DNA of 12,773 nucleotides, taken from UHGV virus genome UHGV-1672225. One strand, written 5' to 3'. Each line of letters begins with the position of its first letter. Position 1 is the stretch's first letter. Under the pieces are notes generated by a model that saw only the letters and a list, made by a program, of their open reading frames with translations, did no database searches and had not been told where the DNA came from. A program made the position numbers and the translations under genes. Origin of the DNA: a virus. Positions 7,987-12,773 of the stretch are shown here, in pieces.

Positions 7987-8022
7987 ACCACGATACGTGG
8001 TATTAAAACCACATATCGTGAG
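7987..8022. promoter_or_regulatory. Two adjacent operator-like palindromes (ACCAC-N5-GTGGT type)
   Basis: ACCACGATACGTGGT at 7987-8001 is a perfect inverted repeat; ACCACATATCGTGAG at 8008-8022 is imperfect. Both are preceded by AAA. Confidence 0.55.
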
Positions 8023-8089: not shown

Positions 8090-8104
8090 ACCACTAAATG
8101 TGGT
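8090..8104. promoter_or_regulatory. Operator-like palindrome on the repressor-proximal side
   Basis: ACCACTAAATGTGGT, a perfect 5-bp half-site inverted repeat about 40 bp upstream of the CI-like start. Confidence 0.5.
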
Positions 8105-8141: not shown

Positions 8142-8798
8142 ATGAAAAGCAACGACGAGAACATCAAGAAAGAAATAGGTCTGCGCATTCAGACTCTACG
8201 GAAACAATCCGGCATGACTGCCGGAGATCTCCAGCAAGTCACTGGAATAGGCTTAAGCACCTTGCAGAACTATGAGGCCGGATTAAGACAACCATCTATA
8301 CCTGCCATCAAGAAAATCGCGCACGCCCTGAAAGCATCAGCGCCTTATATCGCGTGCTTAACAGATAACCCGTTCCCACCCCAGAATACTAACGCTCCTG
8401 TTATTCCTGGGCTTGTAGCTATAAAAAATGACATAGCATCGCACGCCGGAGAAAAGCCAGTGCTGGCGATAGAACAGGAGATTCTACGAAGCAAGAACAT
8501 CAACCCATCGTCTCTGTCAGTTCTCCAGAGCAACGATGAGTTAATGTCACCAACAATATCCCCAGGCTCCCAAGTCCTGATTAATACAGACGATACAGAG
8601 ATTCATGAGGGGATCTATGCCCTTGAAGACAGAAATGGCCTGGTTGTTTTGAGGCACTGTAGAGTCATACCGGGTGACAATGCTGTTATGCTGTCAACCG
8701 AAAGGGATGCTGAAATGAACACTAAGCATCTGAATAACGAGGAATTTAAGCGTTATAAAGTTCTTGGCCGCGTAGTTAGTGTTGTCAACTGGTTATGA
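8142..8798 (+). CDS. CI-like phage repressor (XRE-type HTH plus S24 LexA-like peptidase domain)
   Basis: N-terminal LRIQTLRKQSGMTAGDLQQVTGIGLSTLQNYEAG is HTH-like; the C-terminal 100 aa has an S24-like fold pattern; divergent from the Cro-like gene. Confidence 0.7.
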   Translation: MKSNDENIKKEIGLRIQTLRKQSGMTAGDLQQVTGIGLSTLQNYEAGLRQPSIPAIKKIAHALKASAPYIACLTDNPFPPQNTNAPVIPGLVAIKNDIASHAGEKPVLAIEQEILRSKNINPSSLSVLQSNDELMSPTISPGSQVLINTDDTEIHEGIYALEDRNGLVVLRHCRVIPGDNAVMLSTERDAEMNTKHLNNEEFKRYKVLGRVVSVVNWL

Positions 8799-8840: not shown

Positions 8841-8855
8841 ACCACATTTTGTGGT
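8841..8855. promoter_or_regulatory. Fourth operator-like palindrome, downstream of the CI-like gene
   Basis: ACCACATTTTGTGGT, same half-sites as the switch-region sites; a TTGACA lies 2 bp downstream at 8857-8862. Confidence 0.5.
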
Positions 8856-10573: not shown

Positions 10574-10590
10574 ATTCAGCCATAAAAAAA

Positions 10591-10606
10591 GGCCCCCGAA
10601 GGGGCC
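10591..10606 (-). terminator. Intrinsic terminator hairpin (minus-strand orientation, possibly bidirectional)
   Basis: GGCCCC-cgaa-GGGGCC preceded on the plus strand by 7 A (a U-run on the minus transcript); no T-run on the plus side. Confidence 0.45.
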
Positions 10607-11132
10607 TAATCGCTACTTGCTGCTAATGTTTATCGTCACATTCAGAGCGTTATCAGTAATCTTCCAACCCTCCCCATGTGGCGTAAACAAAGCCCCAGTA
10701 ACAACGATAAAAATACACATACAGTATTTTTTCATTGTATGGCCCTTACAGGCCGTTTCACGGCATCCCCACCGACGAAAACAACGCGAGAGCAAGCACG
10801 GCTGCTTGTGCTTGCATGTACGGCAACGGAGAATCCTCCCCTAAAGTCGGTGCCCGGGTGCGAATCGGCGGGAAGGTCCACAGGTATTTTACGATTATTT
10901 TAAGATTAGTAATAGGAAAGAAATTAAACGAAAAAACTCGTTTATTTTCACAAAATCAGTAACCTACCCACAATCTGTGAGTTTGCAGGCACAACAAGAA
11001 CCACAATTTTTTGAAGCATAATAGTGGACTATTATTACCTTTTGGGTAAAATTAACTTGCTGCTTGTGCTTGCGTGGTTGTTTATACAACAACGTAATGC
11101 TGAAAGGACCGCGAATCCGATCAGCACGAAAG

Positions 11133-11159: not shown

Positions 11160-11305
11160 GTTTCTGCCTACCAATAAACCCACGCTATGTGGTTGTCTCT
11201 GTTAAAATCCTGCCGTATTGACATGAATGCGCCATTGGTGGACACTTTCCGAGCCGTAGCAAAATCTACGGTCGGGATTGGAACCCCGATAATCATCATG
11301 GCGCA

Positions 11306-11326
11306 TACCGCGTTAGCGGTTTTTTT
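11306..11326 (+). terminator. Second intrinsic terminator in the leader (candidate sRNA 3' end)
   Basis: ACCGC-gtta-GCGGT followed by a 6-T run; a perfect -35 TTGACA lies about 90 nt upstream at 11218-11223. Confidence 0.4.
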
Positions 11327-11491
11327 ATGCGTAAAGCACTGCTACACCCAAATTATGGTGGGGCGTGCGGGGGAGTCGTAAGACTCGCCGGATTCCATGG
11401 TGACCGGTAGTTCCAACCCTGTACGTCTCACCACCCAATGATTGGAACCAGACGGTGGTGAGTATCCTTAACCTTTAAGGGAACTATCACC

Positions 11492-11683
11492 ATGACAAAC
11501 TTACCCCATGACTATTACGTCAATCTCGTAAAGATCCTTCTCAAGAAAGCCTCATACGCCGATAAATTCCGCCTGACTGAAATCATCGAGCGCGAAGCTA
11601 TGCGCATCGCCAGCAACGATAACGCTGTTTCTGACGCAAAAATCTCCCTCGTAACCAAAGTAGTTATGGGAGGTGCAAAATGA
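11492..11683 (+). CDS. Small protein (63 aa) translationally coupled to the antirepressor-like gene (icd-like position)
   Basis: ORF with AAGGGA RBS; its stop overlaps the next ATG (ATGA at 11680-11683). Confidence 0.4.
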   Translation: MTNLPHDYYVNLVKILLKKASYADKFRLTEIIEREAMRIASNDNAVSDAKISLVTKVVMGGAK

Positions 11684-12773
11684 AAACGCTTCCGACCGTT
11701 AACACCCTACAGCCTATCCTGCATAACCAGATCCCCGTTATCACCACGGAGCTGCTTGCCAAACTATATGGCTGTAGCGTCGAATGTCTTCACAGAAATC
11801 ACCACCGTAATAAGTCCCGGTTTACAGAAGGAAAACATTTCATAGTTGTAAAAGGTACAGATCTCCAAAGTTTGAAAATCTCTTTAAGAGATTTTCAAAC
11901 CATCGCGAATAACGTTAGAAAGCTCATCCTCTGGACCGAACGCGGGGCTGCACGTCACGCTAAAATGCTCGAAACCGATCAGGCATGGGATGTATTCGAA
12001 CGGCTGGAAGACTGCTACTTCAACCAGAACGCGCAAACGGCCGCGACCGTAACCGTCTCGCCAAACAATGCTCGTGAGGTTGTCGATACGCTCAACGCCA
12101 AACCGATGTTTTACATTAAAGTGTGCAACAACGAGCCACTCACAACCTCAGCCGATGTTGCCCAGGCATTCAGCACCACAAACAATTCCATCGTTATGGC
12201 CATCGATGCGCTACGCATTCCTCGCACGGCTGCGGCGCGTCACTTCTTTAAAGAGCAACGACCGTTGGAAGGAAGCGACCGCGAAATAACAATCTATCGC
12301 ATGACAAAAGACGGATTTACCTTGCTCATGGAGAGTATCGACGGTCCAGGCGTGAAAGATATCAAGCTGGCCTACATTGAAGCCTTTAACGCTATCAGCA
12401 GCGTGTTAAAAACACAGTACGAGCGTGATCTGGCTAAACGACTGTACCAGGAAAAAACGATTATCCGCGCGGCAACAGAGCATAATCGGCTATTAACGGA
12501 ACCGAACTACAGGAAGGAACTAATCAAGGAGTTTGACAAGGCAACAGGGAAAACCAAAGCGGCGCTAAATCTGCCAGCAATGACTCAGGAAAATGTGATA
12601 TCAGCCTTACTTCTTGATCTGCTCAGAAACGCCAGAGCACTTATCAGCTTTGACGAAAACCTGAATCCTCAGCTCAAGCTACTACCACCGACAGGCAAAG
12701 TAGTCGACCAGGCTGATCACAACAGCATACTCAGCGTACTGGATGCAAACCTGCCAGCCAGGACACTACAGGA
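11680..12773 (+). CDS. ORF6N plus Rha-domain antirepressor-like phage regulatory protein (3' truncated by the window end)
   Basis: Hand translation from ATG 11680 (GGAGG upstream) is open for more than 364 codons to the window end; it is absent from the ORF track because no stop lies in the window. N-terminal region resembles the recalled ORF6N domain; the central region resembles a Rha domain. Confidence 0.6.
   Translation, partial: MKTLPTVNTLQPILHNQIPVITTELLAKLYGCSVECLHRNHHRNKSRFTEGKHFIVVKGTDLQSLKISLRDFQTIANNVRKLILWTERGAARHAKMLETDQAWDVFERLEDCYFNQNAQTAATVTVSPNNAREVVDTLNAKPMFYIKVCNNEPLTTSADVAQAFSTTNNSIVMAIDALRIPRTAAARHFFKEQRPLEGSDREITIYRMTKDGFTLLMESIDGPGVKDIKLAYIEAFNAISSVLKTQYERDLAKRLYQEKTIIRAATEHNRLLTEPNYRKELIKEFDKATGKTKAALNLPAMTQENVISALLLDLLRNARALISFDENLNPQLKLLPPTGKVVDQADHNSILSVLDANLPARTLQ

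Follow-up and report, generated by a model that had tools for sequence, protein, structure and literature searches.

Two genes that overlap at the end of a viral DNA raise the question of what kind of unit they form and how that unit is controlled. The DNA is UHGV virus genome UHGV-1672225, of which a stretch of 12,773 nucleotides (nt) was analysed (hereafter the window), and the pair consists of a small open reading frame (ORF) of 63 amino acids (aa) followed by a long ORF6N/Rha-type gene that runs off the end of the window. The region from 11180 to 12773 and beyond is probably a P1 immI-type, C4-controlled secondary-immunity operon of a ~47-49 kilobase (kb) Escherichia coli/Yersinia phage-plasmid, in which a translationally coupled small ORF precedes an ORF6N/Rha antirepressor that would induce the prophage. 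Its assignment to a known kind of system, as a further example of the C4-superfamily RNA-controlled Bro-network antirepressor operon, is well supported.

Gene pair at the end of the window

The initial annotation had described a small ORF joined by ATGA to a long frame that the supplied ORF list lacked. Translation of the window bore this out. The TGA of the small ORF (11681-11683) shares bases with the ATG at 11680, forming ATGA at 11680-11683 (GGGAGGTGCAAAATGA), an overlap that is kept in relatives, and the frame from 11680 holds 364 sense codons without a stop up to base 12773. It was absent from the list because the ORF tool omits ORFs that run off the end of the source. Beyond the window, the coding sequences of E. 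coli plasmid pE1-5 and Yersinia phage vB_YpM_41 place the stop 51 nt further on and give an intact protein of 380 aa, with neither a frameshift nor an unrelated protein. As RefSeq annotates both genes (WP_004105259.1, a 63-aa hypothetical protein, and WP_094316870.1, an ORF6N domain-containing protein), they are not unannotated in public data, and only the window truncates one of them.

The proposed ORF6N/Rha character of the long ORF was also borne out in Pfam, with both domains above their gathering cut-offs: ORF6N (PF10543) at aa 12-96 (E-value 4.6e-18; 65.7 bits against 27.8) and Phage_pRha (PF09669) at aa 155-239 (E-value 3.9e-12; 47.0 bits against 29.9).

Upstream RNAs, target sites and promoter

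The operon comprises the following features, all on the plus strand:

11218-11246, +: likely promoter, with -35 TTGACA (11218-11223), a 17-nt spacer and a weak -10 GACACT (11241-11246); start near 11253
11253-11326, +: isrK-like leader RNA (Rfam RF01394; 70.2 bits against a gathering score of 50)
11278-11284, +: a1 (TTGGAAC), in the loop of the second isrK hairpin
11293-11301, +: b1 (TCATCATGG), in the isrK RNA
11307-11326, +: intrinsic terminator, a terminator-like site at the end of the isrK RNA
11351-11438, +: C4-family antisense RNA (Rfam RF01695; 84.3 bits against a gathering score of 45; full-length, model positions 1-87)
11395-11403, +: b' (CCATGGTGA), in a hairpin loop of C4
11410-11416, +: a' (GTTCCAA), a single-stranded segment of C4
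11442-11448, +: a2 (TTGGAAC), 4 nt after the end of C4
11487-11494, +: b2 (TCACCATG), spanning -5 to +3 of the start codon of the small ORF
11492-11683, +: small ORF, ATG start, 63 aa, PHROG 7886; read here as the direct translational target of C4
11643-11673, +: hairpin within the small ORF
11680-12773, +: antirepressor-type gene (ORF6N at nt 11713-11967, Phage_pRha at nt 12142-12396), truncated by the window end

The C4 loops were assigned from the consensus-structure alignment of the Rfam match. The single-stranded segment a' is perfectly complementary over 7 nt to both a1 and a2, and b' is perfectly complementary over 8 nt to b2, which covers the AUG of the small ORF, 54 nt after C4. For b1, pairing with b' extends over 9 base pairs including one G-U when counted by eye, and the exact match counted by script is only 5 nt. 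At the promoter, none of the 15 aligned loci, diverged ones included, has lost the TTGAC hexamer or altered its spacing. No LexA box was seen there by eye (no formal scan was run).

Covariation of antisense segments and targets

Relatives were collected from 13 viral contigs, one genome locus of Yersinia similis, four contigs retrieved by looking up exact protein matches, a Yersinia phage and an E. coli plasmid; loci are designated below by L numbers. The 300 nt upstream of the ORF were aligned and complementarity was counted by script, the formal pair-count tool being left unused because MAFFT sets the sites out of register. The allele diversity comes mainly from viral contigs and single-protein look-ups, as a scan of genome contigs with the small-ORF alignment gave only L017.

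The exposed C4 segments and their target sites covary across 13 specificity types, made up of nine C4-type a'/b' combinations (P1 counted) and four sRNA-Xcc1-type ones. Five a' alleles were found, namely GTTCCAA, ACGCCAA, AGGCTAA and GTTCGAA in the small-ORF family and CTGTCAA in P1, while the b' alleles include CCATGGTGA, TCATGATGA, GTCATTGTG, TGGTTAC and TGGTTTG, and the a and b alleles combine differently among relatives. In relatives, a2 changes together with a' and a1 (TTGGCGT, TTAGCCT, TTCGAAC), and b2 changes with b' (TCATCATGA, CACAATGAC). Complementarity of a' to both a2 and a1 is perfect over 7 nt in 9 of 9 C4-type combinations, and cognate b'-b2 complementarity reaches 7-13 nt across C4 types, against averages of 4.5 nt (a) and 6 nt (b) for non-cognate pairs. 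The b2 site overlaps the AUG in seven of nine types; L016 and L017 resemble P1 in having it immediately upstream, beside the Shine-Dalgarno sequence (SD). The Rfam c4-a1b1 model matches L016.

In five loci (L014, L015, L018, L019 and L021), Rfam places sRNA-Xcc1 (RF02221) in the position of C4. No clan was given for it in the Rfam output, and C4 belongs to clan CL00128. In the four of these loci that were analysed, a hairpin loop is complementary to the SD region of the small ORF and a single-stranded segment to a site ~25 nt upstream of the ATG; both sites are duplicated ~90-100 nt upstream of the RNA, and all of them differ between loci. With its two segments complementary to the leader and to upstream copies, as in C4, sRNA-Xcc1 appears to fill the role of C4. 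The whole amounts to a clean, naturally occurring collection of 13 or more orthogonal antisense/target pairs.

The specificity nucleotides also vary between close relatives. Over positions 11176-12773, the window and vB_YpM_41 differ at 46 positions, 33 of which are concentrated in 209 nt (11282-11490). Most of these 33 affect the loops, their targets or the intervening leader, and one pair is compensatory in a C4 stem; the ~1280 nt of coding sequence hold only 11 of the 46. The RNA allele of the window is exactly present in vB_YpM_39. Since near-identical members thus differ almost only in RNA-specificity nucleotides, the alleles predict which of them are heteroimmune and can superinfect or induce one another. 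Heteroimmunity is predicted for vB_YpM_39 against vB_YpM_41 and vB_YpM_44, despite antirepressor proteins that are 99.7% identical and an identity of about 98% in the DNA over the repressor region.

Conservation of the junction

The overlap between the two genes is more than chance because it is conserved across relatives; by itself it would say little, a 4-nt overlap being the commonest gene junction in bacteria and frequent in their operons. The 13 listed loci in which the 63-aa small ORF is intact all end it in GGAGGTGCnAAATGA over the start of the next ORF, with the general form GG(A/G)GG-N-ATGA. ATGA is also found at the junctions of five more loci (L017-L021), even where an unrelated downstream gene has been swapped in. 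Across relatives, at least four different antirepressor-type genes sit behind it: ORF6N plus pRha (380-404 aa), ORF6N plus P22_AR_C (L010), pRha alone (L013, L014, L021) and P22_AR_N (L015, L019), P22_AR being the domain of the classical P22 antirepressor. As ATGA is kept while the downstream genes vary, the RNA and its targets, together with the small ORF, behave like a single conserved cassette that takes interchangeable effectors.

Within the small ORF, UCUCCC (11643-11648) can pair with the SD of the antirepressor gene, GGGAGG (11668-11673). The resulting hairpin is present in both the minimum-energy and the centroid folds of the window and is the consensus of eight diverse loci (12 pairs, two of them with compensatory changes). 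It is consistent with translational coupling without proving it, and it counts as weak evidence, since coding constraint is a confounder and its stability is no better than that of shuffled sequence. The first 78 nt of the small ORF contain 29% C and 12% G. By its composition, this C-rich, G-poor 5' tract is of the kind that would let Rho terminate an untranslated message.

The 63-aa protein

The small ORF is a conserved protein-coding gene under purifying selection. It matched PHROG 7886 (function unknown) over its full length (E-value 3.6e-47; residues 1-63 on positions 1-63 of 63), and its family comprises 34 protein clusters across Enterobacterales, 25 of which have a length of 63 aa (in Salmonella, Klebsiella, Yersinia, Hafnia and Erwinia), the rest being longer calls from upstream starts or fragments. 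In comparisons of the window with relatives at 71-89% protein identity (Nei-Gojobori), the ratio of nonsynonymous to synonymous substitution rates (dN/dS) was 0.08-0.17 in the annotated frame, with synonymous change saturated; the other two frames gave ratios of 1.2-4.5 and contained 2-5 stops. Twenty-two residues, including the N-terminal MTNL-HDYYV, are invariant across Escherichia, Salmonella, Klebsiella, Yersinia, Hafnia and Erwinia. The AlphaFold model shows three helices with a mean pLDDT of 81.5.

No match to the protein was found in Pfam or NCBIfam, and the search of its model against folds in the PDB, the only structure set searched, gave a single, meaningless match (E-value 8.4). Homology to P1 Icd was rejected, as BLASTP gave no alignment and the protein did not match NF033153, on which P1 Icd itself scores 3.4e-14. 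No alignment was found to P4 Kil either. The place that host-killing peptides occupy in P1 and P4 is taken here by a conserved, uncharacterised 63-aa protein.

A 95-aa version of the gene, called in vB_YpM_41 (L001 12198-12485) and in protein clusters P0001, P0002, P0004 and P0006, was set aside in favour of the 63-aa form as the conserved gene, because its ATG lies inside the b' loop of C4 and is out of frame in the window. Pfam assigned PF10554 (Phage_ASH) to four calls of the 95-aa type, and NCBI gives a fifth (P0008) the name 'ash family protein'. The Ash-like part of the longer calls appears to be a translation of the C4 RNA, which is a point for annotation: the 95-aa 'Ash family' calls of some records begin within C4.

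The most distant homologue of the small ORF (P0033, 65 aa, 57% identity) lies at L020 1801-1998, in a P4-satellite-like setting with AlpA, DUF4222 and an AAA_25 primase-like protein.

The ORF6N/Rha protein

Over its full length, the long ORF matched PHROG 8244 (function unknown; E-value 1.7e-244). Its N-terminal domain matched several PHROGs annotated as anti-repressor and its middle domain led to Rha-like regulators, while the last ~130 residues of the 380-aa protein have no match. Among PDB sequences, no solved relative was found at E-values up to 1. P1 Ant1 was rejected as a homologue: the best BLASTP E-value was 5.0, and P1 Ant1 carries PF03374 where the window protein carries PF10543 and PF09669. 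From its position, its domain family and precedent, we infer that the ORF6N/Rha protein is an antirepressor.

Phage-plasmid context and primary repressor

The window DNA is 99.9% identical to E. coli plasmids of 47-49 kb, such as pE1-5, and 97% identical to Yersinia phages vB_YpM_39, vB_YpM_41 and vB_YpM_44. The plasmid record (pE1-5) contains RepA, ParA, holins, an endolysin and P2-like tail genes, and the family was found in 71 of 5426 complete E. coli genomes (~1.3%). The module is likely the second immunity system of a phage-plasmid family that has also been isolated as Yersinia pestis phages. Phage HQ103, followed as a lead into the vB_YpM literature, proved to be an unrelated 32-kb phage. 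Two features bear on the first immunity system:

8142-8798, +: CI-like repressor gene (218 aa, HTH_3; Peptidase_S24 below threshold, E-value 0.0018)
11180-11192, no strand: palindrome CCACGCTATGTGG, putative operator of the CI-like repressor, ~25 nt upstream of the -35 of the operon

The repressor reads N-D-E-L-M where S24 proteins have G-D-S-M, so that the catalytic Ser is apparently missing and the protein may lack self-cleavage. As it looks non-cleavable, induction would need an antirepressor. The palindrome CCAC-N5-GTGG occurs in four perfect copies in the window (7988-8000, 8091-8103, 8842-8854 and 11180-11192) against 0.07 expected, and none of 200 shuffles reached four. Three copies flank the repressor gene and the fourth lies near the promoter of the antirepressor operon; they are likely the operators of the 218-aa repressor, although the role of the fourth copy is uncertain because of its position ~25 nt upstream of the -35.

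Two further observations concern the surroundings of the module. A full-length ryfA RNA (10585-10881, minus strand; 141.8 bits against a gathering score of 80) lies upstream of it, and ryfA was found at a similar distance in 8 of 13 related viral loci; ryfA loci elsewhere are linked to small toxic peptides. In pE1-5 (L002 1377-1452, outside the window), an annotated tRNA-Ile gene adjoins an MT-A70 methyltransferase gene.

Proposed mechanism

Under the C4-controlled reading, one promoter (~11218-11246) would drive the isrK-like leader with its a1/b1 decoys and a leaky terminator, then C4, a2/b2, the 63-aa ORF and the ORF6N/Rha gene. In the lysogen, C4 processed from the operon's own transcript would pair with a2 and b2 and block initiation at the small ORF, as judged from P1/P7, P4 and Gifsy-1. 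Without ribosomes on the small ORF, the downstream gene would stay silent through loss of coupling, Rho polarity or both: its SD would be held in the hairpin and freed only by a translating ribosome, and Rho-dependent termination would become possible in the C-rich, G-poor 5' tract of the small ORF once it is left untranslated. Once competition removes C4, the 63-aa and ORF6N/Rha proteins would be produced together. Relief from C4 could come from a superinfecting relative with different a/b alleles, from a short isrK-like RNA that titrates C4 by means of a1/b1, or from a derepressed promoter. The ORF6N/Rha protein would then inactivate the CI-like repressor (8142-8798), leading to prophage induction. 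Antirepressor activity, heteroimmunity and induction are predicted here from position, domain family and precedent.

Evaluation of alternative readings

Several observations weigh against the operon as it is read here. The -10 of the proposed promoter is poor, matching only 3 of 6 consensus positions, which is why a consensus promoter scanner was silent on it. The fold stability of the SD hairpin is no better than that of shuffled sequence (z-score -0.23), with little covariation, and the antirepressor gene, having its own strong SD (GGGAGG, 6-nt spacer), might start independently; the SD of the small ORF is weak and varies (AAGGGA in the window but CTGGAA in vB_YpM_41). In L020, the stop of the small ORF is overlapped by the ATGA of a 56-aa ORF that is not an antirepressor, and the search for C4 upstream found none, a SymR-like hit on the leader's other strand being below threshold. 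Neither protein of the window is homologous to P1 Icd or Ant1. The ATGA overlap might then be incidental, with the downstream gene starting from its own SD, the small ORF being separate and C4 control, if any, acting by transcriptional polarity alone. Its strong SD, the commonness of 4-nt overlaps and the lack of significance of the hairpin against shuffles would fit such an arrangement, but the junction and the SD-containing hairpin are kept in all of the diverse loci despite swaps of the downstream gene, the P1 record annotates icd as required for ant expression, and in Gifsy-1 a start mutation or an early stop in the upstream ORF cuts translation of anrP (PMC4825925, Table 1C); we regard an incidental overlap as quite unlikely. 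Coupling could also be all that the small ORF is for, its peptide being functionless as suggested for orf45 of Gifsy-1, in which the peptide sequence varies while the DNA is conserved (PMC4825925). That the 63-aa protein has no domain or fold match agrees with a purely regulatory leader, which is nonetheless very improbable in view of the low dN/dS with saturated synonymous change, the 22 residues invariant across genera, the ratios above 1 and the stops in the other two frames, and the confident three-helix model.

It is unlikely that the operon is controlled by C4 but that its ORF6N/Rha product is another DNA-binding protein of the Bro network, such as a Rha-like regulator, a lytic activator, a KilA-like growth inhibitor or an exclusion factor. 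Both of its domains are of the DNA-binding type, the NCBIfam Rha model, below whose cut-off the 380-aa protein scores, is titled 'phage regulatory protein', and the PHROG 'anti-repressor' labels are annotations, not tests, for a protein without a solved relative; P1 has kilA beside ant, and the roles of Bro-network members vary, that of repressor included (PMC10111431). On the other side, the same position of the cassette is occupied by P22_AR_N or P22_AR_C in relatives, by Ant in P1 and by an ORF6N-type gene in the related Salmonella phage SW-37, the seemingly non-cleavable repressor of the window would need an antirepressor partner, and AnrP of Gifsy-1, encoded behind a C4-like RNA, induces the prophage (PMC4825925). 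A further reading gives the small protein more weight and is possible, if doubtful: the 63-aa protein would be a portable 'adaptor' gene with a function of its own, moving with a C4-superfamily RNA and its target sites as one cassette that is recombined at ATGA before varied Bro-network effectors, and the short terminated isrK-like RNA would sponge C4, making a three-RNA switch. Its own function could be that of a host-targeting inhibitor of growth or division or of an antirepressor co-factor, analogous but not homologous to P1 Icd and P4 Kil. The immI-type operon, with a coupled small ORF and an ORF6N/Rha antirepressor, is preferred to these alternatives.

Comparison with known systems

The immunity region of P4 (seqA-CI RNA-seqC-kil) resembles the window in that the C4 and isrK models also match its CI RNA and seqA, and in that the RNA is followed, as first translated gene, by a small ORF (kil, whose translation gives 65 aa). 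It differs in its downstream genes, which are for replication and not for an antirepressor.

In Gifsy-1, an isrK RNA with its terminator is likewise followed by a small ORF overlapping the start of an antirepressor gene by AUGA (isrK-orf45-anrP), and a C4-like RNA is present (the processed STnc1160). There, the upstream ORF must be translated for AnrP to be translated (Hershko-Shalev et al. 2016; PMC4825925), and IsrK in trans switches on translation of both the upstream ORF and AnrP (PMC4825925). The isrK terminator is read through into the operon in Gifsy-1, as would be expected in the window. Unlike the small ORF of the window, which is separate from C4 and under purifying selection, orf45 overlaps the C4-like RNA and encodes a non-conserved peptide. 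In Salmonella phage SW-37 (L023 2584-3284) and Stx2a phage Stx2_131990 (L024 2519-3370), an ORF6N-type or Rha-type gene directly follows C4 with no separate 63-aa ORF; the ORF6N-type gene of SW-37 looks frameshifted, and the long mechanical ORFs of both loci begin inside C4.

C4 and isrK profiles co-occur with Bro-network genes and are embedded in zones of such genes (PMC10111431). This network (ANT, Bro-N, KilA-N, ORF6N, P22_AR_N/C, Phage_pRha, Phage_ASH) is a label for linked domains, not a functional family, and gives no function for the 380-aa protein, which joins two of its members; relatives swap others at the same locus.

C4 is the antisense repressor of P1/P7 immI, where it pairs near the ribosome-binding site, blocks ant expression and sets heteroimmunity (PMC12197685; PMC8198154). 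The annotated P1 record has the order a1, b1, c4, a2 (starting 4 nt after c4), b2, icd and ant1, and the window shares with immI the promoter, a1/b1, the terminator-like hairpin, C4, an a2 at the same distance from it and a b2 where translation of a small first ORF begins, that ORF being joined to the antirepressor gene by an ATGA overlap as in icd/ant1. The 5' half of its C4 is nearly identical in sequence to that of P1, and the palindrome at 11180-11192 recalls the C1 operator at the c4 promoter of P1, with the uncertainty of its role noted above. Both elements are plasmid prophages in which a/b alleles differ between near-identical phages; such an RNA-level difference in secondary immunity, as read from the sequences, is the P1/P7 pattern. 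Unlike in P1, the small ORF is not Icd-like, the antirepressor carries ORF6N and pRha instead of ANT/KilAC, b2 covers the AUG where that of P1 sits at the icd ribosome-binding site, the primary repressor is of the HTH_3/S24-like CI type and not C1, and the phage has P2-like tail genes and a genome of ~47-49 kb. The resemblance to icd-ant proposed in the initial annotation therefore stood for the architecture (ATGA, C4 and isrK upstream, covarying target sites) and fell for the proteins, which are not homologues of Icd and Ant1. By sequence, the module shares its RNA parts with P1 immI by homology and fails both protein-homology tests, so that its likeness to P1 lies in regulatory design and position, not in protein families.

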